From positions 41,205,388 through 41,269,387 of the forward strand of contig NC_092670.1 in assembly GCF_964355755.1 (NCBI RefSeq): DNA of 64,000 bases. The letters are read 5' to 3'. The stretch comes from Antedon mediterranea. Taxonomy: Eukaryota; Animalia; Echinodermata. Positions 872-57,625 of the stretch are shown here, one piece after another (position 1 is the stretch's first letter; each line of letters opens with the position of its first letter). A program made the position numbers and the translations under genes. Under the pieces are notes generated by a model that had not been told where the DNA came from, made no database searches, and saw only the letters and a program-made list of their open reading frames with translations.

Positions 872-3800
872 ATGGCTAGGTCAACTGCTGAAGAAATTGA
901 TGATGTTGCAGGCCTTTTTGCAGAATTTTGTGTCGTAACTGGAGCTTCGGAAGGTGAAGCACTTGAATATCTACAAAAAACAAATTGGCAAGTCGTGGTA
1001 AGTATAAAGCCAGCTAAAATCGGATAAAAACATCACTCACTCAAATCTCCATTATGAATTTGCATTAAATTAGTGATCGTATTGGTCGGCACACCTGTGG
1101 GGTGTCATGACATTTTAATAATACACACACGTCATAAGTAGATTTTTGTTATTGGAGGAGGACTGTGCATGGGTCACATGATATTATAAATGACAACTTC
1201 TATTGCACTTTTAATGATGTCATCGAGAGTGCAATGTTGTTCCATTGCTCTCAGTCTCATATAACCATTCATATGTATACTATCGGGTATACTAATGCGT
1301 CTGATTTATTTCTACTCAAAAAATACAAAAAAAGATGGCCGGCACACAAGATTTCTGAGACATAATCTGTTCAGAATATGCTAATTTTAAATACTAATGT
1401 TATTCTATGTTTTGTTATTGAGGATGCAATCAACCTATACTTTGATACAGTGGCAAACCAACCAGATGATGATGAGAATGGAACAAGCTCAAATTCAAAA
1501 GACAGGTATTTAATTCAGCTTTTAAAACAAGATTTTGGATCAAACAACAAAATAAATTTTGAAAAAGATACTGGCATGTGCATGTCTTTTATTTTTACAG
1601 TCTCAAAGTTGAAGGCAGTAAAGAAAAAGAAGACAAAAAGATAAAAATGATAACATGGAATATTGATGGTCTTGATGACCGGAATTTAATAGACAGAACA
1701 AAAGCAGTTTGTAGTATAATAGAGAGGTATATCAAGTGACTCATTTTAACATACAGGTGACCCTTGTACTCCTAACCAATCACAATCAACTAAATGCAGT
1801 TTGTAGTATTATAGAGAGTGATGACTCATTTCTATTAACATACAGGTGACTCTGGTACTCTCAACCAATCACAATCAACTAAATGCAGTTTGTAGTATTA
1901 TAGAGAGTGACTCATTTCTATTAACATACAGGTGACTCTGGTACTCTCAACCAACCACAACAATGTAGTTTAAACCATTCAGGATCTTCTTTCTTGAACA
2001 GTATGATAGAATCGGACTGGGTTCATGTTGAACATCTATCTCTAGTTTGTTTTATCATAAAGCTTGTTTTTTGTTTACCTATAAATTGTATATCTTTACT
2101 AATTATTGTATATCTTTACTAATTATTGTATTTATTTCATAAGACTTGAACCAGATATCATCTTTCTCCAAGAGGTCATAGTTGAAACAGCATCTCACAT
2201 CGAAAAACGATGCCAAAAATACAAAGTGCTACCAACAAGTGATGCTGCATACTTCACTGCTATGATGTTGAAAAAAAGTAGCGTTTCAATTCTTTCAAGT
2301 ATTGTTGATCCATTTGAGAATACAACGATGATGAGGGCGCTTCACAAAGTCAAGGTTTATCATTTTATTTTTTACTAATTTTAACATTAATGCTACTTTA
2401 CAAATATTTGATAACACAGTAGGTCTACAGTTCAACGTTTAGCTACACCAACAAAGTATTTCTGACAAATGTACAGTATTATTATATGTTGGGTACAATT
2501 GTTTTTGCTAGGTGAAATGTGCCGGAATAGAGTTCCTTCTGTTGAATTCTCATCTTGAAAGCACAAAAGATGCAAGTGGTAAACGCAAAAGACAGTTTCA
2601 GATGGCACTTCAAGAAATGTGCAATTCTAACGATGGTACTGTTGCCTTGTTTGGAGGGGACACCAACCTACGAGACAGTGAGGTAAGTGAACACCAACCT
2701 ACGTGACAGTGAGGTAAGTGAACACCAACCTACGAGACAGTGAGGTAAGTGAACACCAACCTACAGGACAGTGAGGTAAGTGAACACCAACCTACGTGAC
2801 AGTGAGGTAAGTGAACACCAACCTACGAGACAGTGAGGTAAGTGAACACCAACCTACAGGACAGTGAGGTAAGTGAACACCAACCTACGTGACAGTGAGG
2901 TAAGTGAACACCAACCTAAGAGACAGTGAGGTAAGTGAACACCAACCTACAGGACAGTGAGGTAAGTGAACACCAACCTACGTGACAGTGAGGTAAGTGA
3001 ACACCAACCTACGCGACAGTGAGGTAAGTGAACACCAACCTACGCGACAGTGAGGTAAGTGAACACCAACCTACAGGACAGTGAGGTAAGTGAACACCAA
3101 CCTACGTGACAGTGAGGTAAGTGAACACCAACCTACGTGACAGTGAGGTAAGTGAACACCAACCTACGCGACAGTGAGGTTAGTGAACACCAACCTACAG
3201 GACAGTGAGGTAAGTGAACACCAACCTACAGGACAGTGAGGTAAGTGAACACCAACCTACGTGACAGTGAGGTAAGTGAACACCAACCTACAGGACAGTG
3301 AGGTAAGTGAACACCAACCTATGAGACAGTGAGGTAAGTGAACACCAACCTACAGGACAGTGAGGTAAGTGAACACCAACCTACGAGACAGTGAGGTATT
3401 AGTGAACACCAACCTACAGGACAGTGAGGTAAGTGAACACCAACCTACAGGACAGTGAGGTAAGTGAACACCAACCTACAGGACAGTGAGGTAAGTGAAC
3501 ACCAACCTACGTGACAGTGAGGTAAGTGAACACCAACCTACGTGACAGTGAGGTAAGTCATAATGAACACAGTCCTCTGACAAACATACAGTGTACACAA
3601 GATGCTCAACATAAACAAATCTTGGGATTAGTAGCTGACCAACCTTCCACTCCACGTACTTGGTGCATAAAACAGGCAACAAGTCAGTGTATTTAGAAAG
3701 ATATTTGGAAAGACTATTAAAATAATAAATTTCATCATTTTAAAAATAGTTTATTAATTTAACAATGATTTTAGGTGAAAAGTATTGGAGGGTTACCTGG

Positions 3801-4059: not shown

Positions 4060-4836
4060 TTTGAACCAGTGCTAAACTTGACTTTGATTTTGTAAATTAG
4101 AGTGAACCAGGTGTAATAAGACGTGATTTCCGTTTCTTTTATTACCTCTTTATTGTTTGTGATTATTATATCAAACCAGTTACTTACAAAAAAAAACCAT
4201 ATTTGTCATAAAACTAAAACAAATATAAATAAATATAAATTCAAATATATTCTAAATAAATCTTGCACAAAATGTTTAATATTTGGTATTTTCAGGGAAG
4301 GAAACTGTTGGGCGACATGTTTATGAAAATGAAATGATTATGCTATAAAAATGCTTGTTAAAATCAGGTAACCTGGATTATTTAAATCGGGTAACCTGGA
4401 TTATTTAACAAATTGTACATGTTGTATTATTACTACTAATTGATTTCCACTAGCTTTTTATTTGCAAAAATTATATTATAAAGTTTAGTATCAGATTATA
4501 AGCACATGCTAAACCAAAGACAAGCTTGTACTCAACCACCTTGTATGTAACATTTATACTTGCAATCATTATTGTTATATGGTTATAAGTCATTTTTGAT
4601 ATTTAAGCCCTTAGTCAGGCTTCTCATATAAGTTGGTTTTTCTATAAAAGGGGCAAATATTGTCAAGAGCAAGTCTACTGTAATTAAGAAAGAGGGGTTT
4701 TCGTTCTAATCCACTGGCTACAGGCTTGCTATCAAAACAATAAAATAATATTCTTCTGCCAAACATTTGGACACCTTCTTCTTTTAATTCCTTCTGAGTT
4801 TGCATTTCTTATTTTTCTTATATTACAGTTAAGTAT

Positions 4837-5277
4837 GTACACATTCCGTTTAGTAGAGCACTAAATGAACTTAATGTTACGCATAATACATGCGACTATT
4901 TTGTTTTACGTCTATTTCAACAGTGTTGTTCATTTTCTTTTAATGTACGTACACATTCCGTTTAGTAGAGCACTAAATGAACCTAATGTTACGCATAATA
5001 CATGCAACTATTTTGTTTTACGTCTATTTCAACAGTGTTGTTCATTTTCTTTTAATGTACGTACACATTCCGTTTAGTAGAGCACTAAATGAACCTAATG
5101 TTACGCATAATACATGCGACTATTTTGTTTTACGTCTATTTCAACAGTGTTATTCATTTTCTTTTAATGTACGTACACATTCCGTTTAGTAGAGCACTAA
5201 ATGAACCTAATGTTACGCATAATACATGCGACTATTTTGTTTTACATCTATTTCAACAGTGTTGTTCATTTTCTTTA
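4837..5277 (-). repeat. 112-bp x~4 repeat containing the Argonaute C-terminal codons, stop and 3' UTR
   Basis: Each unit reads ...KQNSRMYYA* (or a one-base variant) on the minus strand; stops at about 5213, 5101, 4989 and 4877. Confidence 0.93.
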
Positions 5278-16095: not shown

Positions 16096-19000
16096 TTATA
16101 GGCTGCTTTTAGCCTGGCCAACACTTGATGCAGATTTCTTTCCAAGTGCTTTACATATAAAGTCTGCTGAACTTATCAATTTTCCAAGATCAACGCCCTG
16201 TAAATAAATCATAAATGTCTTTGGTTTAAAGAGCTTATAGTACTTGGCACCATCAAGTCAATAATGATTTGATTTCTAAAAGTATACAGTATTTTACTTA
16301 AGTCACAAATATGAAAATAGTGTATTGAAATAGAATCTTACTGTTTGAATCCCCAAACCATCTAACATATATACAACATCTTCTGTAGCAACATTACCAG
16401 AAGCACCTTTAGCATATGGGCAGCCACCAAGGCCAGCAATTGATGAGTCTACAACACTTATTCCCAGCTAGAAGTATAACAGACATTTTATTAATTAATC
16501 TATTGGTATCTACTAGTAATACGTTAATACCCCCCCCCCCCCCCGTCCCACAAGGACGTAGATCATAATAGCTATTAAGGTTGCAGTAATGTTTATTTTA
16601 CTGATACTGGCCTAGATACGTACACTCTCAATGGATGGAGAACAAACAGCAATCAACATGCTTTTATTGAAGTTTAAAAATGATGATGTAATCATGGTAT
16701 TGTTGACTGCTGCTGGTTAATTTTCCGCTGCAGTCTGTCAATTTACATAAGGCTCTTCCAACCCTGGACTTCTATAACGTAAATGGTTATTAGGTATTAC
16801 TGTATGATGAAATAGGATCTTTTAATTTAGTGGCATAAAAAACATTTAGTATGTAATTAAGGGTGTTGCTCAGGCAACTGGGGCAACACCCTTGCATCCG
16901 CCCCTGGCATACATAGGAATTGAAGGAACAAGAAACAAGGGTATGTAAAATGTCCTACTGTAATCAGTAAATAAATCACCTGTAAAGCAGCAAAGATATT
17001 GACTAAAGCTTGACCATAAGTGTTATGAAAATGAACAGCAAGTTGTTCAATTGGTACATCATTTATGACATCTTGTAGCATCTGTTGCACAGCTAGAGGA
17101 GTTCCAACTCCAATCGTGTCACCAAGAGAGATCTCATAGCAACCCATTTCACGCATTCTCTTTGCTACCTAAAAATACAGTTACATTTATTGTTTCTTTT
17201 CAGGTTGTCTTTTATTATTTCTTTTCACTATGCTATATGCAAGACAAGTGCATACACATTTTACATAAAAAATAAAATGTAAACCGCTATTTTGTTGTTG
17301 AATAGACCATAATCAGTTTGGGAGTGTTGGTGTACCTCATTATCAGAAATGTGCTTATTCCCACAATTTTGCCCTAAACATGCACCAGTGCTTTGAATAA
17401 TTTATTACGGGTTCAATGGAAGATTGGCTGACGATCACATACAAAAATTCAAAGTATTTCTTTTTTTAAATGCAAATCAATACTTGGAAACAAGTTTACC
17501 CTAGTTACTGCACTTGGTTCTATTTTGCCTTCGTATGGACAGCCTACTACGCAAGATACATAACCTCACAAGTTTACCCTAGTTACTGCACTTGGTTCTA
17601 TCTTGCCTATGTATGGACAGCCTACTACGCAAGATACATAACCTCACAAGTTTACCCTAGTTACTGCACTTGGTTCTATCTTGCCTATGTATGGACAGCC
17701 TACTACGCAAGATACATAACCTCACAAATTTACCCTAGTTACTGCACTTGGTTCTATCTTGCCTATGTATGGACAGCCTACTACGCAAGATACATAACCT
17801 CACAAGTTTACCCTAGTTACTGCACTTGGTTCTATCTTGCCTTTGTATGGACAGCCTACTACACAAGATACATAACCTTACAAGTTTACCCTAGTTACTG
17901 CACTTGGTTCTATCTTGCCTATGTATGGACAGCCTACTACGCAAGATACATAACCTCACAAGTTTACCCTAGTTACTGCACTTGGTTCTATCTTGCCTTT
18001 GTATGGACAGCCTACTACACAAGATACATAACCTCACAAGTTTACCCTAGTTACTGCACTTGGTTCTATCTTGCCTTCGTATGGACAGCCTACTACGCAA
18101 GATACATAACCTCACAAGTTTACCCTAGTTACTGCACTTGGTTCTATCTTGCCTTTGTATGGACAGCCTACTACGCAAGATACATAACCTCACAAGTTTA
18201 CCCTAGTTACTGCACTTGGTTCTATCTTGCCTATGTATGGACAGCCTACTACACAAGATACATAACCTCACAAGTTTACCCTAGTTACTGCACTTGGTTC
18301 TATCTTGCCTTCGTATGGACAGCCTACTACGCAAGATACATAACCTCACAAGTTTACCCTAGTTACTGCACTTGGTTCTATCTTGCCTTTGTATGGACAG
18401 CCTACTACACAAGATACATAACCTCACAAGTTTACCCTAGTTACTGCACTTGGTTCTATCTTGCCTTCGTATGGACAGCCTACTACGCAAGATACATAAC
18501 CTCACAAGTTTACCCTAGTTACTGCACTTGGTTCTATCTTGCCTTTGTATGGACAGCCTACTACACAAGATACATAACCTCACAAGTTTACCCTAGTTAC
18601 TGCACTTGGTTCTATCTTGCCTTCGTATGGACAGCCTACTACGCAAGATACATAACCTCACAAGTTTACCCTAGTTACTGCACTTGGTTCTGTCTTGCCT
18701 TCGTATGGACAGCCTACTACACAAGATACATAACCTCACAAGTTTACCCTAGTTACTGCACTTGGTTCTATCTTGCCTATGTATGGACAGCCTACTACAC
18801 AAGATACATAACCTCACAAGTTTACCCTAGTTACTGCACTTGGTTCTATCTTGCCTTCGTATGGACAGCCTACTACGCAAGATACATAACCTCTTACTGG
18901 AATATTTGCTTGTTTTGCAGATTTCATAACTTCCTCAAACCTCATCAAACTTTCGTCAATTGAACAATTTATATTTTTTCTAAAGTCAAAAATAAAAACA

Positions 19001-21523
19001 CAATTAGTTTAAAGACACCTTCCCTACAATTTGTGACGTTTTGTAAAAATAATACATATATATTACTTTAAAAACATTAAACCAGGTCATTCCTTGTCTT
19101 AAATGTACGTTTTATGGTAAATTATGATAAAAAGTGAGAAACAATGCACTACCTAAGTAGCTCGCGGCGACTGACCTCTCGTGGACGGTCTTTAGGCCTA
19201 GCCTAGCTAGGCTTAGTTATGTAGGCCTAGCTGGTAAACATCGGTAACGTACGAACATCGTACGCTAGCTATATACCTAGCCTGACATTGTATATTTGCT
19301 GCATTAATTGTCTTTCTATTTTTGCCAGACTCCGTTGATACAAATTGGGGAAAACCGGTATTTTCGCTGAAAAGTTAGGAGTCTTCCATTTGTTTTGGCC
19401 TCACAATCGATCGAAAAGTGGGTGAATTACAGAAGAAAAACAGAAATATCAATCCGCGCGCAATGCATTTAGGGATTTATAGCAGGCCGCTATAAATATT
19501 AGAATCGACTTATTTTTCACATTTTTAACCATTTAAAGACGAAAAAAGTTATCGCAATAGGACCATATATTATTTTTACATTAAATATAGTTTGTGATCT
19601 TAAAATAGATCTAAAAAACGTAGGGAAGGTGTCTTTAACTAATAAATTAACATTAAAAAGAGGAGATTGAAGAGAACGCTATGATTATAGGAATGCCATA
19701 CCTACTGAAAGATTCTGAAGCTGCTCCAAATATGGCAACTTCTTCCGCACCAGCTTCAACTGCTGAGTTAAACCCTTTCAGGTTTGGAACTAAGACTGGA
19801 TACTTTAATGATGGGTTCTTACTGATTGTCTTCATTACTTCTGTATGATCTGCCATCTTTAAACAAAATTAAATAATATCTCTACAATATGTTTTGTTTT
19901 CTAAATCATTAAAATCCAGAACTTGTACAGTATTTGATCATACCAACCTGAGGAACCCACTTTGGAGACACAAAGCTGGTGGCTTCAATGACAGCAAGAC
20001 CTGTCTCAGACAATCGGTTTATAAGCTCTACTTTCACCTCTGTTGGCACAATTTCCTAAAAAATATACAGTAATAAATGTTTCATTTATGGCCGACAAAT
20101 GTTTAGTACAAAACGTAACTTTAATAGCTTGCCATTGCAATAAAAAAATAATCACCTTTTCATTTTGAAGTCCATCTCTCGGGCCAACTTCAACAATTTT
20201 TACATATTTGGGTAGTTTTGATGCTAATGCCATTAAATCCTGTGGAAATAAAATATTTATAATTTATATATTCAATTAAGATGATTTGTCAGTGATACTT
20301 TTCTGGACATTCCAAGTTTAAGATGATTTGTCAGTGATACTTTTCTGGACATTCCAAGTTTAAGATGATTTGTCAGTGATACTTTTCTGGACATTCCAAG
20401 TTTAAGATGATTTGTCAGTGATACTTTTCTGGACATTCCAAGTTTAAGATGATTTGTCAGTGATACTTTTCTGGACATTCCAAGTTTAAGATGATTTGTC
20501 AGTGATACTTTTCTGGACATTCCAAGTTTAAGATGATTTGTCAGTGATACTTTTCTGGAAATTCCAAGTTTCAAAGACCAATTATTTTGTCTAATGAAAC
20601 ACCTATGTTTTTTTTCTCATATTTCTGTACTAATGCAATTAATTAATGCTTATGTATTTTGGATGCTTACAATGAGAGTAATTAAAAAAAAATACCATTA
20701 TTAATATCTTTCTTTAATATTTAAAGTTAATTTTCAAGGGGTTTTGATTGTGCAGAGAGATGTAAAAAATAGAGGGATCTTGGACAAGTGCAGCTGACAT
20801 TCTCATTCATGTGTAAGTTCCTTATTATTTTGTTCTCATATTAAACAGCATTATTTTTTCTCCCATCAACTTAAGGCAAAATGAATAATTCACAGATTAA
20901 TTATGGCATAAATTTTATTGGGGGCGCAATAAGCATGGAGATGAAAGTTTTTGTGTCGGTTTTGACAAATGTTCGGCTTCAGTCGAAGGCACCGAAGCAC
21001 TGCGTTCGATGCTCATCAACATCATCCATGTTTTTTATAATACTTTAATAGTTGAAACGTCAATCTTTTTTGTCATTAAATTTTATTTTTAAGTTAAAAT
21101 TAATATTTTAGAAATATGCTCAGTTATATTTATGAGGTCAGCTATCTTGTAATGTTTAACCCTTAACAATAATTAGGCTCCTGCAACAATATTCATAATT
21201 TCTGCCCTAACTTGAGAGGGAAAAAAATAATGCCCTGGTCGCAGCCTCTGCTGGGATACAGTCTAAATGTAGGCCAGGCTATGCTAATGCTATCTATTTA
21301 ATTATAATGCAAATGCAGGGTGTAGGCTAGTAATAGTATAGCGGCTAGCCTATTTATTTTAATAACTGCAGTTATAGTATGAAAGTCTGAATTTCTTTTG
21401 CTAAATACATAAATGGCCTGTTCAAAATCTATTAGAACTAAAGATAATACTTACCACTGAATACTTTTTTTGTAAAATCAGTGAAATTTTTTTAACTAAA
21501 AACCCACCTCTCCAACCACCCAT
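16096..21523 (-). CDS. HMGCL: Hydroxymethylglutaryl-CoA lyase, multi-exon
   Basis: ATG at 21523. Motifs [61 protein letters not shown] and [19 protein letters not shown]; ends QAKSSL*. Confidence 0.96.
17490..18893 (-). repeat. 78-bp x18 tandem array of an HMGCL exon end plus 5' splice site
   Basis: The minus-strand unit encodes [22 protein letters not shown] followed by |gtaaacttgtga. Confidence 0.97.
19013..19634. mobile_element. Kolobok-like non-autonomous DNA transposon
   Basis: TIR agacaccttccctac/gtagggaaggtgtct; TTAA on both sides. Confidence 0.85.
20276..20571. repeat. 42-bp x7 intronic minisatellite near the HMGCL exon 2 acceptor
   Basis: Unit ttaagatgatttgtcagtgatacttttctggacattccaagt. 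Confidence 0.95.
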
Positions 21524-24600: not shown

Positions 24601-27600
24601 CATTCAACGCAAGGTAAAAGGCTATTGCATTTTTTAAAAAAGTTTTTAATGAAATTTAACATATCCAATCCAATCTAATTTGTCTGCGATCATTTACAGT
24701 TTGTTAAATTATTTTAAATTGTGAAATATGTCTACCTGTTTTCTAGAGTATCCCAGAAATAATGGAAGGCAAAGATGTGGTTGCCATGGCAAGAACAGGT
24801 AGTGGAAAGACTGCTGCGTTTCTTATTCCAATGTTGGAGAAGCTGCAACAAAGGTCAGGGCAATCTGGTGCAAGAACCTTAATTCTGTCACCTACAAGAG
24901 AACTGGCTCTACAGACACTTAAGTTTGCCAAAGAGGTAAGTAGAATGAGTAGAACCTTAATTCTGTCACCTACAAGAGAACTGGCTCTACAGACACTTAA
25001 GTTTGCCAAAGAGGTAAGTAGAATGAGTAGAACCTTAATTCTGTCACCTACAAGAGAACTGGCTCTACAGACACTTAAGTTTGCCAAAGAGGTAAGTAGA
25101 ATGAGTAGAACCTTAATTCTGTCACCTACAAGAGAACTGGCTCTACAGACACTTAAGTTTGCCAAAGAGGTAAGTAGAATGAGTAGAACCTTAATTCTGT
25201 CACCTACAAGAGAACTGGCTCTACAGACACTTAAGTTTGCCAAAGAGGTAAGTAGAATGAGTTAAGAACAAAATCTTTATAAATAAAAACTTACAGATAT
25301 ACTGAAGTAAAAATATAATAGTGATAATCTAATAGCTTTTTCTGTAACTTTATATTATCAAGAGTTCAAACAATAAATAAAAGTATTACTCTAATTGTTC
25401 CATTTTTTTTTTATTAACATTTTATATTTGTTGTATTTTCAGTTAGGTCGTTTCACAGATCTGCGTGCAGAGGTAATTCTAGGGGGCGACAGCATGGAAG
25501 AACAATTTGCTGCCTTACATGAGAATCCTGATATAATTATTGCAACACCTGGTCGTTTATTACATATCATTATGGAGATGGATCTAAAATTGAAAGCAGT
25601 TCAGTATGTTGTCTTCGATGAGGCTGACAGGTGAATATTTAGATTTTATTGTAGTTCAGTGTGTTGTCTTTGATTAGGCTGACAGGTGAATATTTAGATT
25701 TTATTGTAGTTCAGTATGTTGTCTTTGATGAGGCTGACAGGTGAATATTTAGATTTTATTGTAGTTTAGTATGTTGTCTTTGATTAGGCTGACAGGTGAA
25801 TATTTAGATTTTATTGTAGTTCAGTATGTTGTCTTTGATGAGGCTGACAGGTGAATATTTAGATTTTATTGTAGTTCAGTATGTTGTCTTTGATTAGGCT
25901 GACAGGTGAATATTTAGATTTTATTGTAGTTCAGTATGTTGTCTTCGATGAGGCTGACAGGTGAATATTTAGATTTTATTGTAGTTCAGTATGTTGTCTT
26001 TGATGAGGCTGACAGGTGAATATTTAGATTTTATTGTAGTTCAGTATGTTGTCTTAGATGAGGCTGACAGGTGAATATTTAGATTTTATTGTAGTTCAGT
26101 ATGTTGTCTTTGATTAGGCTGACAGGTGAATATTTAGGTTTTATTGTAGTTCAGTATGTTGTCTTTGATGAGGCTGACATGTGAATATTTAGATTTTATT
26201 GTAGTTCAGTATGTTGTCTTAGATGAGGCTGACAGGTGAATATTTAGATTTTATTGTAGTTCAGTATGTTGTCTTTGATGAGGCTGAAAGGTGAATATTT
26301 AGATTTTATTGTAGTTCAGTATGTTGTCTTTGATGAGGCTGACAGGTGAATATTTAGATTTTATTGTAGTTCCGTATGTTGTCTTTGATTAGGCTGACAG
26401 GTGAATATTTAGATTTTATTGTAGTTCAGTATGTTGTCTTCGATGAGGCTGACAGGTGAATATTTAGATTTTATTGTAGTTCAGTATGTTGTCTTAGATG
26501 AGGCTGACAGGTGAATATTTAGATTTTATTGTAGTTCAGTATGTTGTCTTTGATTAGGCTGACAGGTGAATATTTAGATTTTATTGTAGTTCAGTATGTT
26601 GTCTTTGATGAGGCTGACAGGTGAATATTTAGATTTTATTGTAGTTCAGTATGTTGTCTTTGATGAGGCTGACAGGTGAATATTTAGATTTTATTGTAGT
26701 TCAGTATGTTGTCTTTGATTAGGCTGACAGGTGAATATTTAGATTTTATTGTAGTTCAGTATGTTGTCTTTGATTAGGCTGACAGGTGAATATTTAGATT
26801 TTATTGTAGTTCAGTATTTGATTTGATTTATTTTGATACCATACAAAGTTAACAAATACAGATATACAGGTAAATATTCATGATTGTATTCAGTACATTG
26901 TCTTTGGTGAGAAAAATATTCATTTTGCTGTTGAATTATTGTAGTGTGTACCGTGTTGTGGAGAAGCATTTCCTAGGGAACTCAATTGACAACATACAAG
27001 TCCATGCGCTGTCTTTTTGAAGTTCTGGTTTGTTAAAGCATAAAGAAATGGGTTTATTGCTGCATTGGTCCAAACCAAAACATTAGCACTTCTTATAAAA
27101 ACCATTGATGTTTGGTTGTCCTTATTTGTAAAAACAGCAATACCGTAAGGAATCCAGCAGAAACATGTAATGCTAACAATAGCAATAACAGCTTTCATGA
27201 CTCTAAATTCTGGATTGCGTGGCGCTTGTGATATGGTTCTAGGTAATGTTCTACCATTCCGCATTGTTAGTGAATGTGTATGTACACGTCGTCTGCTCTC
27301 ATGATAAGCTTTATATATCAAGTAATTTGTAATAGTAACAAGACAAAGTGAATAACCCATTGCATATCCTATTATGATTGCTTCAAACGTCCATGATTCC
27401 AAATCTCCATAAACTATTGCGCAATGTCGTAATGCAACGTTAAATCCCACCTCACCAAAACCACACATTGGCGCTAACACCGGCCCAAGAGTCAACAGAA
27501 AGTTTATACAAATCGTAAACACAATATATTTGTATTGTGTAAAGCGGATGTAAAATCTATGAGATTTAGTTATCAGTATATAACGATTAATACTAATAGT

Positions 27601-30600
27601 TGTCAGGGTAGTTAAAGACATGCCTAGAGTCCAAAGTGTAACATATCCCAGAAACTTACACAAATTACAATCAAGGTTCCAACTGTTGTTGTACACACTA
27701 TAAATAAAGAATGGCATAAGAAAGCCTGTAGTGATCAGATCAAAGACTGCTAGATTGGCAACCCAAAAGTAAGTTACAGTCCGTAATGCTGGCGTGAATA
27801 TAATGGCTGATATCACAAATATGTTACCCACACTTCCTACAATACATAAAGTAATGAGGTAGATAACTTCAATGACTGTTCCAAAAGGCCCGCTGGATTC
27901 TGTCAGAATGTCTGTCACATTCACTATTATGGGATAGCAGTAATTTGCCATGATTTGGAAATATTCAATTCAATCTTTTGATTTTTACTAAACAATCCAC
28001 TGAGACCTAAACAGAGATTAAAACAAAAAAAGTAGTGATAATAATAAAGAAATTTAGGAATTCTATGACTATAGAACATGTCAATTACTTGATAAATGAA
28101 ATGAGAATGTAGCTATTAGTATTATGGATCATGAAATGAGAATGTAGCTATTAGTATTATGGATCATGAAATGAGAATGTAGCTATTAGTATTATGGATC
28201 ATAAAATGAGAATGTAGCTATTATGGATCATGAAATGAGAATGTAGCTATTATGGATCATGAAATGAGAATGTAGCTATTAGTATTATGGATCATGAAAT
28301 GAGAATGTAGCTATTAGTATTATGGATCATGAAATGAGAATGTAGCTATTAGTATTATGGATCATGAAATGAGAATGTAGCTATTAGTATTATGGATCAT
28401 GAAATGAGAATGTAGCTATTAGTATTATGGATCATGAAATGAGAATGTAGCTATTAGTATTATGGATCATGAAATGAGAATGTAGCTATTAGTATTATGG
28501 ATCATGAAAATGTTTGGATAACAACAGAAAATGAATGAAAACAGTGGTATATTCATCATGATGCCAACATCTGGTGAGCTATCGATATAGAGTGAATATA
28601 AATATTGAGCTATGCTTCCTGGTCCCCATGGTATACCTTAAATTAATTAAATAAAACATTTACACAAATAAAATCATACTTACCGCCGACATCATACTTA
28701 CCGCCGACACTGGGAGTTGGGAACAACTAACAAGACCATTTCAACTTGACCAGATTCAGATTTCTAATAAGATTTTTAATTCTTGCTTGGAGTATGAAAT
28801 TTAATTCTTTTAAGGCTCTGTTTACCTTAATCTTGAGTTGTATGACGAAACATGTTTGATTAAATGCCATATCATAGATATAATTATCAAAGTAGATTGC
28901 ACTAATAACTTATATCAAGTTGAAACACTTAATTATATCATGGAGGGATGATTATATTGTGAAGCTAATGGGCTTGTTTACCGTAACTGTCCATTAGTCT
29001 TGTGTAAAGTAAAGTGAATATTAATGTGTTTACCCTTAATATATTTACACCAGTATCTGCATATAGATAGACGAGGTATCAAATACCATACACAAGATCA
29101 TATCACATTTAGAATATTCCATTGGCATCTGTACGATATTATTCTGTTTTTATCTGATTTGGCAGTTAATACTTAGTTATACACTGTTTACCTCAGTATC
29201 AAATAAAAAATTTGTTTTTTTTTGTGTTTTGTGTGCATGCTACGTGTGTTGCTTTAACAACATTTTAAAGTTAAGTCGTGATGTAGTCATTGTAGGGCCA
29301 TTCAAAATGACTTGTTGACTTTTAGACCCTTGGTACCTCCCTGCTTGATGTTTAATCAAAATATTAATAAATGAATTTGTCTACTTTGACAGATTGTAAA
29401 TTACGGTCGCTCATTTCTCATTTGTTTATATTAGGTTATTTGAGCTTGGATTTGCTGAGCAATTAAGAGAGATAATTCAGAGATTACCTGACAACAGACA
29501 AACAGTCTTATTTTCTGCAACACTTCCAAAGTCATTGGTAGAATTTGCTCAGGCAGGTCTTAATGATCCTCTACTTATACGTCTTGATGTCGAAACTAAA
29601 ATCAGTGAAAATCTCAAGGTATATCAGATTTGATTTTTTTAATTATGGCGAAACAAATAAAATGTTGATAAACAAGCTGTTCAACAGAGTTAGATGTTTG
29701 GCAGAATATCGGTAAAATTCAAAATGCATACAACATAAATACCATAAATATTTGTATAATAATTGCTGATATAATAATTAGACATCAATTTGAGTCAAAA
29801 CCATTTAACGTTATTTCACCCATTGATTTTATAGACATCATTTCTTTGTATGAGGGCAGCAGATAAATTACCAGTGTTGATGTACCTGTTGAGAGAAGTT
29901 GTGAAAGCCAATGAACTTGCTGTTGTTTTTATGGCAACTAAACATCATGTAGAATTTGTTAAAGAGGTGAGATTGATGTTTGCATTCATTTCAAATTTGT
30001 AGTGTTTTACATTCACATGTTTGTGTACATGTAGATGATATCAAATTGAACATTTTTAGCAGTCTTTATTTGGCCAAGTCCAGTAATAAAAAAGGAACTG
30101 TTTTCCACAAACAGTATTTTAAAGAAATTGAGTCTTGAAATACAAAATAAAAAATGCTCTTCCAATTCTACAGTAATTAAAAACTAAACCTAAAATATAT
30201 TTTCTATCAAGATTCTAACGCAAGCTGGTGTAAGCTGTACTTACATCTTCAGCTCTCTTGACCAGACTGCACGTAAAATTAACGTGGCAAAATTTACAAA
30301 TAGAAAAACAAATGTGATGTTAGTGACAGATGTAGCTGCTCGTGGTATTGACATCCCAATGTTGGATTATGTCATAAATTTTAACTTCCCAGCAAAACCA
30401 AAGTTATTCATACACAGAGTTGGTAAGTTGTAACTTCTTCATTTGTATTGTAGTAGTGTGGCAAAAGCAGCTTGTAGTTTCTCATAAAGTTTTTTTAAAA
30501 TTGAGCTTTTTTAATTGTTTTTCAGGTCGTGTAGTTTTAAAAATTGAGTTAATTTGTTTTTCAGGTCGTGTAGTTTTAAAAATTGAGTTAATTTGTTTTT

Positions 30601-33600
30601 CAGGTCGTGTAGCAAGAGCTGGTCGTAGTGGTACAGCTTTCTCAATGGTAGCACCTGATGAATTGGCACATTTAGCTGACCTTCATCTGTTCCTTGGCCG
30701 ACCTTTGACATTCTGCCAAAGTTTACACACTAAAGGTGATGATCATATTAGTATCCACTGAATTCAATTTTAATGATTAAATTGAGTATGTAATGTCATA
30801 ATGTAAATATTATCAAGTAAATTTTGGTTTAAAATGATAACAAAATCACAAAAATAGGAGAACCCATTTGAAATAATATTTTGCAAAAGAATTAACACAA
30901 GTTCAAATTTACTACTAAGATGATGATGGCTTGTTTGGACGTGTGCCTCAAAGTATAGTGGAGGATGAAGCAGATCACATACAGCAGTTAGAAAACAGAT
31001 CAATGGAGATTGAAGGATTGAAAAAAGTTTGTCGCAATGCTTACTCACAATATCTTAAATCACGACCGGCGCCCTCTACGGCTAGTATTAAACGTATGAA
31101 AGAGTTTGATGGCGTTAATGTCATGTTGCATCCAATGTTTGGTAAGTTAATAATTTATAGAAGAATAATAACTATTAGATCAAAGTGAAACATAAAAACA
31201 AAATGTAAGTAATCTTAATATCCACAGAAAAGCATTTTTGAATTCATTATAATGAAATTTATTTTTAAATAGATGTAAATGATAAAGATGAAACTACAAG
31301 ATACCAACTTGTGGATGGAATCAAGAATTATAAAGCAAAAACGGTAAAATAAATAACTTGTTACACCCTTTCTCCACCAACTATATAATAAACTGTATAC
31401 AAAGTAAGGGTTAATTGTCAATACTTCACAGACAATATTTGAAACCAACACTACAGCAAAGAGTTCAGCATTTGATGTTATGAAAACAAAGAGAAGAATT
31501 CATCAAAACGCAGTTAGTAAAAGAAGGAATAGATTGGAAGAAAAGGAATCAATAGAAAGTGGAAAAAGTAGAAAAAGAAAAGCAAATGATGATGATGGTG
31601 TAAAAATGGCAATGGTAATTTTATTGATGTATTACTTATTGATTATAGAATGTTTTAATATGTGTATGTTTATATATGTTTATTGATCTATTACTTATTG
31701 ATTATAGAATGTTTTAATATGTGTATGTTTATATATGTTTATTGATCTATTACTTATTGATTATAGAATGTTTTAATATGTGTATGTTTATATATGTTTA
31801 TTGATCTATTACTTATTGATTATAGAATGTTTTAATATGTGTATGTTTATATATGTTTATTGATCTATTACTTATTGATTATAGAATGTTTTAATATGTG
31901 TATGTTTATATATGTTTCATATATGTATGCTTTAATGCTTCTTATAATCATATAAACCTAATAAGGAGTTGTTCTTATTTTTAAGGATACATTCTCAGTA
32001 GTAATAGACGGCAAAAGAGGACGTAAATCAGCCAAATTTGATGAGGGTAGTGATTACTATATTTCCTATACACCATCAGACAAACAAACAGAGCAAGGGT
32101 ACATATGCTTCTATTTTATCAAAGGGTATATTTATCATATTCATGTTACTTTTATCTGCATGTTATTTTTGTGTGTGTGTTTTATTTGACAGGCTAAGTG
32201 TTGGTTCATCGTTTAGTCATCAAGCTAAGTCTGCTGTACTTGACTTAACTCAGGATGACAGTCGGATAATGAATAAAAATCAGAAGCTTATTCGCTGGTA
32301 AGACAATTAATCTGTTATGTAGTGATATGCCCAAATATGGTAGTGATATGACATCATCATGTCCATATATGGGCACATCACATTTTTATACAGTTTCTTC
32401 AGTAATCAATTAACGTTTAAAATATAATAAACATTTGTTTAAATATTTCACTTTCTTTTTTTAGGGACAGAAAAAAGAAGAAATACATAAACGAAGCTGG
32501 AAAAGATACACTAAAGAAAATAAAAACAGAAAGTGGGATGTACATCTCGGCATCTTACAAAACAAACAGGTATATTCAACCAATGTTTATCAAATCAAGA
32601 TCACTAATTAAAAGCAGGTTGTTAATTAAATAATATATTTTAACTTTATTTGTTGTTTAGGTACAAAGATTGGCAAGAAAAGAGCAAGGTTGGTATGAGG
32701 GCAGCAGATGAAAGTGATGATGAAGATACAGCAAAAAGAAATGGTAAAGCCCTGCTTCTATATTGATTGCACACTGATTACTGTAGTACCTATTATGTAG
32801 AGCATTTAAAGAAATACTGTGTTTATATTGATTGCACACTGATTACTGTAGTACCTATTATGTAGAGCATTTAAAGAAATACTGTGTTTATATTGATTGC
32901 ACACTGATTACTGTAGTACCTATTATGTAGAGCATTTAAAGAAATACTGTGTTTATATTGATTGCACACTGATTACTGTAGTACCTATTATGTAGAGCAT
33001 TTAAAGAAATACTGTGTTTATATTGATTGCACACTGATTACTGTAGTACCTATTATGTAGAGCATTTAAAGAAATACTGTGTTTATATTTATTGCACACT
33101 GATTACTGTAGTACCTATTATGTAGAGCATTTAAAGAAATACTGTGTTTATATTGATTGCACACTGATTACTGTAGTACCTAGTATGTAGAGCATTTAAA
33201 GAAATACTGTGTTTATATTTATTGCACACTGATTACTGTAGTACCTATTATGTAGAGCATTTAAAGAAATACTGTGTTTTTTTAAAGGCAAACTTGGATT
33301 AAAATCAACGTTAGGAAATCGTTACCGTGGTCATCATAAACAACAAAAAGGAAAAGCACGAAATGAATTAATACCAAATGAGAAAATCTTAAAGACACGT
33401 AAGAAAAAAGAAAAGAATCAAGAAAGAAGTAAACCTAGGAAAGACCGGGGAAGAGATGGCAGGGGTGGAAGAGATGGCAGGGGTGGAAGAGATGGCAGGG
33501 GTGGAAGTGCTGGTAAAGGAGGCAATGTCTTTGGCAGAAAGGGAGTCAGCAATTTTGGTGGAGGCCGAGGAGGTGGAAGAGGCGGCCGAGTTGGTGGTGG

Positions 33601-41108: not shown

Positions 41109-41890
41109 AATAATAATAATAATAATAAATAACATTTTTAAAGCGCAAGAGACAAAGGTTTCAAAGCGCTGTGTTTTCCAAGATCTGTGCAAGTAGTAGC
41201 GTGTGATTATGCTTCTCTGAAGAGATGAGTTTTGAGTTTAGTTTTAAATGTGATTACAGATTTTGATGAGCGTATTTCGAGGGGTAGAGTGTTCCAGAGT
41301 TTTGGGGCTGCGACAGCGAAAGCACGATCACCGTAAAACCGAGTTCTGGAACGGGGTCCAGGTTTTAGAAGAAGTCTGCTGGATGAACGAAGTGTAGAGT
41401 TTGTTGACGGAGTAATGATGTCACATATGTAGGCTGGAGCACATCCGTTGATGGCCTTATATGTCAGCAACAGGATTTTAAAACGAATGCGCAGATCTAC
41501 AGGCAACCAGTGTAAGTCACGTAAAACGGGAGAAATATGTTCATGTCGTTTAGTGCCAGTGATAAGTCTTGCGGCGGAATTTTGGATTCGTTGAAGAGGA
41601 GACAGATAAGAAGTTGGTAGGCCGTACAGAAGCGAGTTATTACAGTCCAGACGAGATGAAACAAAAGCATGAACAAGACGTTCAGTTGATGTTTTGTCAA
41701 GGTACTTACGAATCTGGCCGATCTGGTAAATTCCAAAGGAAGCACCACGGCAAACATTACGAATGTGTTCTTTTAAACCGAGGCTGTTGTCTAGTTGGAC
41801 GCCAAGATTTCTGGCTGAGCTGGAGGTAGAGACACTAGTATCTCCAATGAACAATGACACAGCAAAAGTGGGATTTAGCTGAGAACTACT
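41109..41890 (-). mobile_element. 5'-truncated L2-clade LINE (RT C-terminal part, 3' stem-loop, (TTA)n tail)
   Basis: ARNLGV.LD, LVHAFVSSRLDCNNSLL, LHWLPV, AFAVAAPKLWN and FKTKLKTHLF; agcgctttga..gcgct stem-loop followed by (att)n. Confidence 0.92.
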
Positions 41891-42229
41891 ACTGTACATA
41901 CAATGCACCAGACATTCAAAACCTACTCATTTCATATTGGAAAATAAACTTCTGTAAAAAATGCTGCTAACATATTTAAAATTGTTTTTGAATAAATTCA
42001 CTACAGCCAGTAGATTATATAGTATTAATAATGTGTATAGTATGTGTATTATTTTCTGGTTCCTTTTGATAAAAATGTGTACGACCTGAAGAAAATTTCT
42101 ATAAAACAATTGATGTTTAAATATTTAAATAGGTTTTATTCTGGTTTTATGAAATAAACACATTTATTTTGAAAACCTACAAAATACTGTACTTACAAAA
42201 ATTCATAAAATATTCATATTTATTGTTAA

Positions 42230-42789: not shown

Positions 42790-42932
42790 TTAAAACAGTA
42801 CAACTCATGACATGAAAATACCTATATCTACTAAACAGTACAACTCATGACATGAAAATACCTATATCTACTAAACTGTGTACAGCTTTAAAGGTGACAA
42901 ATTTGGTATTTCACACTTTCTCCCATAACATT

Positions 42933-43158
42933 TTACTTTCCGGGAATGCCAAACCCTTCCTGGTGGTTTCCATGACATCTTACTTTCCGGGAATGCCAAA
43001 CCCTTCCTGGTGGTTTCCATGACATCTTACTTTCCAGGAATGCCAAACCCTTCCTGGTGGTTTCCATGACATCTTACTTTCCAGGAATGCCAAACCCTTC
43101 CCGGTGGTTTCCATGACATCTTACTTTCCGGGAATGCCAAACCCTTCCCGGTGGTTTC
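42933..43158 (-). repeat. 47-bp x5 repeat of the FMN reductase terminal codons and stop
   Basis: Each unit encodes NH(R/Q)EGFGIPGK*; the true stop is at 43121. Confidence 0.95.
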
Positions 43159-44196
43159 TCATGGCATGTGCATGCCAATCTAATTGGGTAAGAAGTCTCT
43201 TTGCTCCAGACTCCATATGGTCATTCAGAGGTTTGCCTTCTTCATCCAGACTCTTGTTAGTTTGAGGTAATCCAAAAATATTTGACACACTGATGCATCC
43301 AATTTCACCCAATAAAGCACGGAGCTGTATGGCTGCCCTCATTCCTCCATACTGTCCTAAAAAAGAGAATTTTAGAGCTTAATAAAATGCAGTCTCTATG
43401 ATAATGATAACTATTGCAACAGCTTAATAATAAATGATATACTCACCTGGAGAGTAGCAAACGATTCCTGAAGGTTTATATGAAAAGCTGCTGCCTGGGA
43501 AGTGGTCCAAGAGATTAGCAAGTGCTGGTGGAATGCTATGATTGTACTCTCCAGTAATGACAACATAACCGTCGGCTTCCTTTATTCTGTTTCCCAGATC
43601 AACCAATAACGGAGGAGCTTCAGATGGATTCTTATAAAAGTGAAGAGGTTTCTTGAGTAGTGGCAAATTTAGTTCTTGGGCATCTAAAATAACATAAATT
43701 ACATTTAGTTAATTGCTTTGAGCAGAATGTGGAAATTATCATTCAATTATAATAAATTTGTTCTTACAAAAACAACACGTTAATCTTTAATTTATTAGAA
43801 AACCCATTAACTTGATTTAAAACCAGGATACATAGCTCAGGTCAAGGCGATCGCGTAGCCTTTTGGCAAAATAATTAGTACTGTCGATCGGTGTCAATCA
43901 CAATAAATTTGATATTGTTCATAAACTGTAAATCACCACGATGAAGGCGCGGCTGCTAATACCACAAAGCAATCAAAGACGGACGATCAATCACAGCTGT
44001 GTTACTTATGGCCTACACGCGATCTCGATACCCTGGTATTGTGGCTAGCTTACTTACCCCGTTACTTACCCATAAAATCTACGTCGTGGCCTGCTTTTAG
44101 CAAGAAGTTTTGCATAAATTTTGCAACACGTAATCCAAGTCTGTTTTCTCGTACAGTTCCAAGGAAAAGTACGTATTTCAATGGTTTGCTAGCCAT
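43121..44196 (-). CDS. NAD(P)H-dependent FMN/quinone reductase (FMN_red flavodoxin fold), 3 exons
   Basis: Exons about 44196-44070, 43683-43447 and 43356-43121. Motifs LGTVRENRLG, ADGYVVITGEYNHSIPPALANLLD, YKPSGIVCYSPGQYGGMRAA. Confidence 0.9.
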
Positions 44197-47578: not shown

Positions 47579-49348
47579 GGATGCTAGTCAAGTCGCCCCA
47601 TCGCAAAGTCGCCCCATACAAAGTCGCCCCTTACACAGTCGCCCCATCGCAAAGTCGCCCCAAAACAAAGTCGCCCCGACACAGTCGCCCCATCGCAAAG
47701 TCGCCCCATCGCAAAGTCGCCCCAACGCAACGTCGCCCCATCGCAAAGTCGCCCCATCACAAAGTCGCCCTATCGCAAAGTCGCCCCAAAACGTTAAAAA
47801 ATAGTTTACAAGTGCGTAAAATGTCGCAATGATACACAAAATAACACGGAACGTGTAGGCATAAAAAGGGGAAGCCCCGCCATGTAGTTTCAGGTCACAC
47901 GATCGGCACGCACCACCATCATCAGAGAGGAAGCCCCCGACTAATCACTCCGCGGTCGCACTAACGTGCTAGCTTACCAGAGGGAAACCCCCGTAATTAC
48001 TCCGCCGTTGTCGCACTACAACGCACCATCTGAAGATGGGGAAACCCCGCCGGAGTTTTACGATGATATCAGTCGCGTTCGAAATCGGTCGCGTTTAAAT
48101 TTGGTCGCGATAAAATGATGTTATACGATCTAGATTATATACATAGTATTACGTAATGAACATTGATTGTAAGCCTGGAAAGGCAATCCCATCATTATAT
48201 CCATTATAAAATTGCATCATATCACCACTATATGTCGTAAATGATGACGTGCGTGTGTGTATTCGTCGTACGTCCGTGTACGTATTATTCCGTGCCTCTT
48301 CACGGTCTTGTTTAATTTAAAATTAAATAAATACCCGATATGAGGATATTTATTAGGCATGATAATTAGAATGTTCTAGGCCTAACCAAAAGGGTTGAAA
48401 AGAATTTCTTCAGTAAAATGATCATTGTGCTGTTGAATAAAAGGCGACTCGCCATCTGAAACATTCTCTGAAACCAATCGGAACTGCGCCGTCTTTCTGC
48501 TGACCGTCGGGGATTGCTCTTTTTAAAAAACACGCACACGATACTGTACGATGGTTTTTCCATGGTCAAAATGTAGCGTTTTAATTTTACTAAAATACCT
48601 GCATGTAAAACAATCATATCGGCGATGAAATCCTTTTTTTTTAATTTCTTTATTTTGAAAAGTCATTATAAAATTAAGACACATAACTTGTCAATAAATG
48701 CAAAATGATCAATAAGTAGCCTATAACACTCATTGTCTTACAACACTGTTATTGTTTTAACTACTGTAAATCTATAGGAAGGCCTAGGCTACTACACATT
48801 TATACATTTATTATAATTATTATCCTAAAAAATTAGCTGGTATCCACGCGTAGGTTGAAGAAAGATTCGTAATTGTGGCTCTGGTAACTAATTTTAAAAT
48901 CATATTAAATTAACATTTTCGAAACTATAAATCAGGGATAGGCCTAATCTTTTTAGAACTTTCAAACAAGGGACTATTTTTTTAATGATTTTTAATAAAA
49001 AGCACATCACTCCATTAAAACCTTAAAAATTAAAACACAAATTATGTATATAGGATAAACATTATACTGTATACGACATTTAGCGCGACCAAAGTAACAA
49101 CGCAATCGATATCAAACGCAACCAATATGATTAAAACCGTGGGCGACTTTGCGATGGGGCGACTTTGCGTTGGGGCGACTTTGCGATGGGGCGAATTTCC
49201 GATGGGGCGACTTTGTAATGGGGCGACTTTGCGATGGGGCGACTGTGCCGGGGCGACTTTGTTTTGGGGCGACTTTGCGATGGGGCGACTTTGTATTGGG
49301 CGACTTTGTATGGGGCGACTTTGCGATGGGGCGACTTGACTGGATCCC
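47579..49348. mobile_element. Non-autonomous DNA transposon with ~200-bp inverted subterminal (aaagtcgccccatcgc)n arrays and an 8-bp TSD
   Basis: TSD ctctttcc at 47571-47578 and 49349-49356; arrays at about 47586-47790 and 49141-49341. Confidence 0.92.
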
Positions 49349-52291: not shown

Positions 52292-55200
52292 ATGGAAACT
52301 ATGTCATGCACTGGACATACAGTCGGTAAGTATTGCATTGCATGAAATGTTAACATAATAATAAGAACAAACTTTCCTTGGAAGTAGTTTATACACTTTA
52401 AAAATTATAGATGAGTTAGGGTACAGTAGGCCTACTATGCGTTTTTCCAAAAAAATCCATGGAACATTGTCTAAATCTTTATCACTATACAAATATTTGA
52501 TTGCAGTTTGAACTACATACACACTACATAAAAACTTCATCACTTGACATAATGTCATCTTAAGTATACATGAGAAATGCAATATTTACGTGAACTTTGG
52601 TTGAACTTTAGTCTATTAATGTCTAATATGAAATCCAGACACACTGTTATCAGGTGTATTATGCAATTCATTTTAAGTCTAGACTTAACAATAAAATTGA
52701 GGAAGGAACATTTTGAGTTGTCACTAGATTTTGAAATTTAAGTTTTGATTAATAAATCTTATGTATTCAGTCTTCCATATCATGTAGGTTCCTCAACAAG
52801 GAAAGTCAAATAAATATGGTTTGAACTTGTAAAGCTGTATTATCCCTTAATTATGGTAGCATATTGTAAAAACATATAATGCGACCTACCGCTGATAGTT
52901 TAAAAGATCAGCTTGATCATGCAGAAAGAAGGTCATATTTTGGCTTTAAAACTTGCTGAAGGGTGATGTTGTCTTCAAAATGTTCTTCCTGTTTGTAAAT
53001 TAAACATAGTCTTGGGTGGTGTTTAACCTATGATGTTGGATTGATTTTAATCTGTAAGTTATTGTCAAATTGGTAGTTAAATACACCTGTACTTACTTCT
53101 TTAAGTTAGATTGTTTGTTGCTACTGTCTTCTTTAAGATTTAATTGTCTCTTGCTATAATTTATACTTTTTACTTTCTATAGCTATATAATTTCTTATTT
53201 AAGTTACATTGGCTGTTGCTATAATTTATTCTTTAGGCTAGATGTCCTTTACATATTAATGTTATCTTAAAATCATAACGTGTATACATTACCCTGCATT
53301 GTCCTTTAATAAATGAATCTATATTTATGTTTAACTCTTAATTACATTGTTAATTATCTTATGAGAGAAGCATAAGAAGCATTGAGAAAACCGAGAGGTT
53401 CTCGTGGTGGCAGAAATAAAAGTCGTAAGATTAAAGTCGTTATTGGTAATGGGCGTAGGCCTAGGCCTACCACCATGGCCGCCCTCAACAAAAGTGGCTC
53501 TTCTCGAAATAATCTGGTCACAATTAAACTACGTAGATCAAGAGTTTCTTGTCCGAGACTTTTCCTTGCTAATGCCCGCTCTGTTAAAAATAAGATTGAT
53601 GAATTTGAAGCCACCACTTCCAAATTCAAAGTCGATATAGCTGTGTTAACAGAGACTTGGCTGAATGATGCTACTATTGATTTTGTGAATTGTTCCGGTT
53701 TTAAAAAGTTCACGAAGAATAGATGCAACAAGAGAGGTGGTGGTGTTGCTATTTTTGTTGGTGATGATTTTGCCTGTGAATCTTGCATTGCACATGGTAG
53801 CTGTAATTTCGAATGCTTTTGGATAAAGACATCTATTCCAGGCAAGTCAAATCAAGGTAGTCACTTTTATATTGGAGCTATTTATTATCCTCCGTCTGCC
53901 GCTAATGCGGATTTGTTGATTGAGCACATTGTTGATACAATTGATAACATTCGTTCTATGGATTTCGCTGCTCCTATTGCTATTTTGGATGACTTTAATG
54001 ACCTAGATCTAGCTGAGCTGGAAGTGAATGTTGGACTGTCGCAAGTTGTTAACTTCGCTACACGAAAGGATGCCCTGTTGGACAAGATATTTTTGAGTCG
54101 TGCTGATCTTTACCATCTTCCGCAACGCTTAGCGCCACTGGGTCGGAGTGACCATAATGCCATCCTATTGGAACCACTGATTGAATTACCTCAGCACAAG
54201 CGTCTATCAGTGCGTTCTCAGCCATATCGTGACTCCTCTGTTTTGTCCTTTGGTCAATGGGTTACAACCCATGAGTGGAATGATGTGCTGAATATTGAGG
54301 ACGTCAATCGAAAAACCAAAATGTTCTCTTCAATTTTGAATGGTGCTTTTAACAAGATATTTCCTGTGCTGATTAGGAACAAGCGCACTGCTGACAAGCC
54401 CTGGATGTCCGACAAGATTCGAAGATTAATTGACTCTAGACAAAATTTGTTTCGTAGGTTTGGATGAGTGGCGTTCAATTCGCAACTTAGTCCAAGATTG
54501 TATTAGAAAGGCTAAAAACAAATATTATTGTAATTCCTTATTAAGTCTTAAACGTAACAACCCTGCCATGTGGCATAAAGGTATTAAACAACTATGTAAT
54601 CTTAAGACTAAAAATACTAATTTCACCTTGCCTGGGCTGTCCAAAGTTGAAACTGCCTCTGATGCCCATTTCTCTAGTGTTTGTAATGCCATCCCTCCTC
54701 TTAATTTAAACGATTTGCCTGCTTATCTCCCAGCCCCTGGGCCACCACCTTTAATATATGCTGGTCAGGTCCTAAAAGCCCTTTGTAATCTTAAGCCTAA
54801 CAAAGCTGGCCATCCAGATGAACCTCCTATTAAACTATATAGAGATTTTGCTCCTGAACTTGCTGAACCTGTTGCGGATATCTTCAATCATGCATTGAAG
54901 GATGGTGTTTTCCCCGACCTTTGGAAAAGGGCTACTGCAGTTCCCATTCCTAAAACTGTGAATGCTAGTTCTGTCTCTGACCTTAGACCTATTTCCCTTA
55001 CCTATGTTCTTGCCAGGGTATTTGAATCTTTTATTGTTAAGTGGATTCTTGAAGATATTAAGGGTAAATTAGATTCTCGTCAATTTGGTAGTAGGAAAAA
55101 GGCTTCCTCAACTCACTATCTTGTTAGTCTTATTGACTCTACACTCAAAGATGTTGAGAAGGGTAAATGTTATGTTAACCTATGTGCCACTGACTTTACT

Positions 55201-57580: not shown

Positions 57581-57625
<45 letters not shown>

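Follow-up and report, generated by a model that had tools for sequence, protein, structure and literature searches.

An 18-copy minisatellite across the exon 5 donor of HMGCL in the feather star Antedon mediterranea, with a probably incidental antisense reading frame

Which of 18 tandem splice donors serves a gene that contains them all, and does the long open frame on the opposite strand of such an array mean anything? Both questions are raised by the HMGCL gene of Antedon mediterranea. It lies in an intron-rich animal region, of which we analyzed 64,000 nt (hereafter the window). An earlier note on this DNA had described repeated copies of an HMGCL exon end and, antisense to them, a candidate repeat protein. 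Our reading, in which we have high confidence, is that a donor array was amplified and is likely spliced at its first donor, and that the antisense frame is a product of chance. A 78-bp stretch comprising an exon end and its donor would have been amplified head-to-tail to 18 copies; the spliceosome would pick the first donor, and the other 17 would leave with the intron.

Structure of the array and its gene

The minus-strand array has a period of 78, 18.0 copies and 97% matches (TRF). Slicing yields 18 full 78-bp units with seven variable columns and a mean pairwise identity of 97.5%. Each unit comprises the final 68 nt of HMGCL exon 5 and the initial 10 nt of intron 5 with its GT donor, which is identical in 17 of the 18 copies. 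The exon carrying the array matches human HMGCL (PDB 2CW6, E 2.6e-19), so that TRF, slicing and this match together bear out the basic description in the earlier note (18 copies of an HMGCL exon end plus donor, 78 bp each). An eight-exon model using the first donor equals the RefSeq HMGCL protein of A. mediterranea (XP_071951397.1) at 328 of 328 residues, and this protein contains one unit. Exon 5 ends at ...AVTR in phase 0, and two bases of an Arg codon come before the unit peptide. Intron 5 would be 331 nt long if counted from the last donor. The coordinates are collected in Table 1.

Neighboring units meet at TGT|GAG, and exact microhomology is absent at both edges of the array. The junction had been said to recreate AG|GT; this motif is instead the native Arg-Gly codon pair and lies inside every unit, including copy 1. 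What the junction does form is an in-frame TGA three codons past each donor (V-N-L-stop). It is correct, as previously noted, that every downstream donor gives an in-frame stop, but the TGA is not immediately adjacent to the donor. A copy included as a mini-exon would add 65 nt and shift the frame.

The unit had also been compared with human exon 6. Human numbering was inferred here from PDB 2CW6 with an offset of 27, which assumes a length of 325 aa. In this numbering the exon part of the unit starts at about c.494 of the human gene and ends at c.561. The comparison is therefore roughly right at the 3' end (donor at about c.561), while the start at about c.494 departs from the human exon 6 start, which we take to be c.498. 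A search of papers for a human c.497/498 exon boundary did not find one. We regard the position of the unit start within a few bases of the human intron site as a modest coincidence and give it no weight. The further statement that no intron interrupts this gene at RG/YV is supported. In the human gene, V168 is placed in exon 6 by the title of a cited paper, and exon 8 covers Met251-Thr292, the smallest exon of the paralog being 64 bp, according to the accessible parts of the literature.

We compared five of 20 listed sequencing runs, none of them recorded as RNA, on two stretches flanking the array. Run X5 carries the same organism label and comes from a second sample, while X6, X7 and X9 come from a sister organism (organism B). 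The run data are collapsed, unstranded contigs in which repeats are merged, and neither donor position nor strand is readable from them. X5 contains three GT-AG joints of HMGCL, including one from the donor unit to acceptor 17169 at a depth of 37.4. The unit junction is likewise covered in this run, by a 60-nt contig with 0 mismatches and a depth of 94. The joints and the junction contig indicate that the array is present in a second animal and that a spliced form exists. We considered an assembly artefact and rejected it on the basis of this junction-spanning contig. The HMGCL donor array is real.

In X9, a 794-nt contig joins 19702-19856 to 18823-18979 and contains one unit; it departs from the reference at the donor, without running into a unit junction, and the gene of this sister organism may be without the array. 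X6 and X7 (filtered records) have no cover over the 78-bp unit. Since they also lack cover over other HMGCL exons, this is no evidence that the array is missing from organism B.

Three further features of the gene were observed. Exon 1 encodes an unusual N-terminus and adjoins a small dispersed repeat; the true mitochondrial leader exon may lie elsewhere. Intron 4 contains a high-copy dispersed element (19010-19640), whose ends, near 18990-19040 and 19600-19640, are related and which is probably a non-autonomous transposon. In intron 6, 112 bp (16618-16731) are absent from the matching organism B contig (X6, X7) and likely represent a small insertion in the A. mediterranea lineage.

Table 1. 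Features of the HMGCL locus, in window coordinates
Feature	Coordinates	Strand	Basis
Minisatellite, 18.0 x 78 bp	17490..18893	-	TRF and slicing
Array copy 1	18816..18893	-	
Array copy 18	17490..17567	-	
HMGCL exon 1	21455..21523	-	RefSeq model
HMGCL exon 2	20156..20239	-	gene model
HMGCL exon 3	19948..20055	-	gene model
HMGCL exon 4	19702..19856	-	joined to exon 5 by X9 contig; gene model
HMGCL exon 5, 154 nt, includes exon part of copy 1 and ends at first donor	18826..18979	-	model equal to RefSeq protein; spliced X9 contig spans 18823-18979
HMGCL intron 5, 1657 nt if the first donor is used, 17 pseudo-donors within	17169..18825	-	
HMGCL exon 6, 189 nt	16980..17168	-	X5 joints; gene model
HMGCL exon 7, 126 nt	16342..16467	-	X5 spliced joints 16467-16980 and 16196-16341; gene model
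HMGCL last coding exon	16096..16197	-	X5 joints; gene model
Array of 42 bp x 7, purely intronic, in HMGCL intron 1	20276..20571	.	TRF
99-bp unit, single copy in assembly: 16 intron nt with acceptor and 83 exon nt	16385..16483	-	runs X5, X6, X7
Antisense ORF, 497 aa, 26-aa Tyr/Thr/Trp-rich repeat	17470..18963	+	ORF list, translation

Donor choice and splicing

Spliced RNA keeps one copy, likely with the first donor in use. The variants among the copies are in line with copy 1 as the coding one. The native peptide is encoded by only six of the 18 copies (1, 4, 6, 8, 11 and 18), the other 12 being altered. In 11 copies the Glu that follows GCPY is replaced by Lys or Ile, and in one an Ile has become Thr, while copy 1 is native throughout. 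The GCPY motif is held by 118 of 121 fetched homologs, and the residue after it is E in 86, Q in 22, D in nine and A in one of them, never K or I. Choice of the first donor would follow from exon definition or from 5'-to-3' scanning, the latter having been shown in human F7. Transcripts that leaked to later donors would reach the in-frame stop and likely be degraded. We consider the array likely near-neutral: it would survive by virtue of an upstream copy that keeps the exon whole. It would have originated by local tandem duplication followed by slippage or unequal exchange, as the shuffled patterns of variants and the lack of flanking microhomology suggest.

Exclusive use of the first donor is not guaranteed, since the human 6-16 and CBS genes also use second and third sites. 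A leakier choice could even have a function, with donors 2, 3 and beyond leading to the in-frame stop and decay, and with copy number tuning HMGCL output. The identity of 17 of the 18 donors suits this idea, as does the use of the next two sites in the human CBS and 6-16 arrays (according to the accessible text of PMC1557585). In X5, a contig of unspliced or antisense type in the intron downstream of the array (17140-17519) has a depth of 13.4, while the spliced joint reaches 37.4, a weak point in its favor given that contigs give no levels. The ratio of junction depth to flanking-intron depth in X5 is 7, where about 12 would be expected from unspliced RNA of the assembled allele (a rough comparison based on contig depths). 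As the ratio is below expectation, extra array-bearing RNA is not required to explain the junction depth; the figures are too rough for a call on copy number between alleles. Nothing shows selection on copy number, and about 15% of the window bases belong to such arrays. We thus regard this dial on HMGCL output as unlikely.

The second alternative is the birth of an intron according to the Rogers model, in which a tandem duplication containing AG|GT leads to intron gain (PMC4974935, accessible text). Here, the AG|GT of copy 1 would be the donor and its counterpart in copy 18 the acceptor, 17 units would be excised, and copy 18 would be coding. Every unit provides the motif, the product would be in frame, and copy 18 encodes the native peptide with one synonymous change. 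The distance of the site from human intron 5 would be about 2 nt. Precedents are ATP2A1 and cases in fission yeast (PMC4974935, accessible text).

We scored these sites with splice weight matrices derived from the 68 introns in seven gene models that were built by hand and have confirmed open frames. The real HMGCL donor scores 6.4. The exon-internal AG|GT reaches 5.0 as a donor, and only seven of the 68 real donors are as low. As an acceptor it scores -0.2, lower than all 68 real acceptors, which does not support its use as one; the copy 14 version scores 2.0 (two of 68 as low). The site is a GAG without a pyrimidine tract, and G at position -3 occurs in just one of the 68 real acceptors. Thus, as far as the sequence can tell, the duplicated AG is no acceptor with pyrimidine tract and branch point of the kind that the model describes. 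The main unit contig of X5 (71 nt) also differs from copy 18 by one base, at a position that is not listed. This mismatch fits copy 1, although the contig comes from a different individual. Finally, the likeness to Rogers-type cases described in the accessible sources is limited to a duplicated exon piece with AGGT: the HMGCL unit has neither a pyrimidine tract nor a YAG acceptor, and it carries a real donor, which makes a new intron unnecessary. We judge the intron-birth route to be very improbable and retain splicing at the native donor of copy 1 as the likelier route.

The antisense reading frame

As the earlier note stated, an antisense ORF of 497 codons spans the array. The frame opens with an ATG 20 nt ahead of the array, which encodes 468 of the 497 aa. 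The ORF is likely a by-product of the unit length, a multiple of three: 78 nt equal 26 codons, so a single stop-free frame is repeated 18 times. On a given strand, 68% of 20,000 shuffled units hold an open frame. When units were cut in the same way at the other donors of the window, 41 of 66 had an open antisense frame (two of the 68 exons were too short), and five of the six other arrays in the window with a period divisible by three hold an open frame as well.

Could the plus-strand frame nevertheless be a gene that arose de novo and is translated into a 497-aa repeat protein rich in Tyr and Trp? The ATG ahead of the array, the 497 open codons and the lack of a stop among all seven variants would agree with it. 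A stop-free set of seven variants has a chance probability of 0.52, however, and six of the seven variants alter the antisense peptide, so that one in seven is synonymous against 20.5% expected. The frame is thus neither longer nor more constrained than chance would make it. A Pfam search of the peptide gave no match, and its exact sequence is absent from the protein collection. The AATAAA at 18991 is simply the acceptor tract of HMGCL itself, read on the complementary strand. These results argue against the frame as a notable de novo candidate and agree with the verdict, given in the same earlier note, that it is more likely incidental. A translated gene is the least probable of the readings considered here, and we treat the frame as incidental to the amplified donor array.

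Splice-site arrays in the window and in known systems

We kept 29 of 48 TRF rows (non-redundant, period of at least 16, about 90% matches or more), which together cover 9,433 bp or 14.7% of the window. Twenty-two of these arrays overlap gene models: five at a donor, one at an acceptor, two at a stop codon, three in frame within coding sequence and 11 in non-coding parts. The donor arrays belong to TDP2, HMGCL, DDX54 (two) and a PDZ-PH gene. In the TDP2-like gene, an exon end plus donor forms 29 units of 31 bp (2660-3558, +), with the native peptide in 17 of the 29 copies; upstream, an older array of 89 bp (1704-1960, +) copies an exon end whose donor was lost via a short deletion. The PDZ-PH gene has an exon end plus donor duplicated as 114 bp x 2 (60954-61182, +).

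DDX54 carries donor arrays on two consecutive exons (24873-25262 and 25598-26817, +). In the first (78 bp x 5) the copies are identical and open in frame, so that splicing at later donors would add 26-aa repeats and meet no stop. The second is an array of 55 bp x 22 in which copy 1 is intact and eight of the 22 copies contain a stop, the last one among them; a late copy therefore cannot be the coding one there. The acceptor array of the same gene (39 bp x 2.6; 30511-30612, +) offers earlier acceptors that would each add 13 aa in frame. Immediately after the 55-bp array, intron 4 of DDX54 harbors on its other strand an intronless rhodopsin-family GPCR gene (7tm_1, E 4e-33; 26920-27969, -).

The stop-codon arrays are found in an Argonaute gene (112 bp x 4; 4829-5276, -) and an FMN reductase gene (47 bp x 5; 42923-43167, -). 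Other repeats in the window include three long frames (41207-41926, -; 53376-55857, +; 55808-58001, +) that by eye look like parts of LINE-type retroelements, encoding reverse transcriptase and endonuclease. Two inverted 16-bp arrays about 1.4 kb apart (47590-47788 and 49141-49337) are possibly the ends of one transposon.

Five donor arrays among 22, HMGCL counted, are not a significant enrichment over the 2.35 expected under uniform placement (P 0.073) or the 2.88 expected under viable placements (P 0.147). Nor is the 5:1 ratio of donor to acceptor arrays significant (P 0.22). Counting the decayed TDP2 case as a sixth gives P 0.022-0.055, and the two stop-codon-spanning arrays compare with about 0.1 expected, both post hoc. 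The density of repeats in compact genes, together with tolerance when the upstream copy is whole, explains the pattern without targeting.

HMGCL also shows presence/absence variation of a second array. A 99-bp unit at the exon 7 acceptor, present once in the assembly, forms a tandem joint in X5, X6 and X7 at depths of 47, 3060 and 381, or about 4, 12 and 10 times those of single-locus contigs. The array is absent from the assembly and from X1, where one unbroken 726-nt contig bridges the site. Use of the first acceptor of such an array is predicted by computation to reach an in-frame stop. One gene thus has an 18-copy donor array here and an acceptor array in another individual and a sister organism. 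This raises the possibility, for now a tentative one, that feather stars turn over splice-site arrays so fast that a single gene differs between animals. If exon ends were targeted genome-wide, the choice of first donors and last acceptors could be tested in Antedon on a natural allelic series, and the genus would point to a process that preferentially amplifies splice sites. The locus would gain importance in that case, or if allele length altered splicing, and its value is raised by diagnostic base differences among the copies, which let RNA reads report the donor chosen among 18. It also carries a warning for annotation, as such arrays yield decoy exon ends and, on the antisense strand, long ORFs that are spurious.

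The HMGCL array is a splice-site-spanning minisatellite or ‘mirage,’ a class that has already been described and to which it adds an echinoderm case; a search of the open-access literature found no report of mirages in crinoids. The class is characterized by head-to-tail units of 10-150 bp, here 18.0 x 78 bp at 97.5% identity, with a terminal unit that straddles a real exon-intron boundary, here with 68 + 10 nt, and with further copies of the splice site in the intron. Normal single-copy mRNA is still made, as seen in the X5 joint, the X9 contig of the sister organism and the one-unit RefSeq protein.

According to the accessible text of PMC1557585, the first unit of a minisatellite lies over an exon-intron boundary in human F7 (IVS7, 37 bp x 5-9), CBS (IVS13, 15-20 copies), LMNB2 (100 bp x 10-15), PDGF (intron 4, 81 bp x 16-18) and 6-16. 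The first donor or the first few are used, with 5'-to-3' scanning shown for F7 and second and third sites also used in 6-16 and CBS. As far as these descriptions go, the HMGCL array resembles them in the first unit over the boundary, the donor repeated identically in the intron and the normal mRNA, and it comes close to PDGF in unit size and copy number. Exon sequence makes up most of its unit (68 of 78 nt), whereas that of F7 has four exon nt of 37. The stop made by the junction past each donor and the echinoderm host set it apart from the human arrays, in which, moreover, first-donor use has been demonstrated, whereas we infer it for HMGCL.

In lancelets, mirages occur at donors and acceptors of Adh3, troponin C, the globins BflGb6/BflGb9 and PGBD5 and leave splicing undisturbed, with somatic instability reported for Adh3 (PMC3087553, PMC3902484, accessible text). 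To the extent described there, the arrays of HMGCL and of the window are alike in their tandem exon-intron boundaries, in affecting both donors and acceptors and in occurring several times per genome. They also share end copies distinct from inner ones and apparently unharmed splicing, in a crinoid here as opposed to a cephalochordate. The lancelet arrays differ in copy number between haplotypes, and here the 99-bp acceptor array varies by presence and absence.
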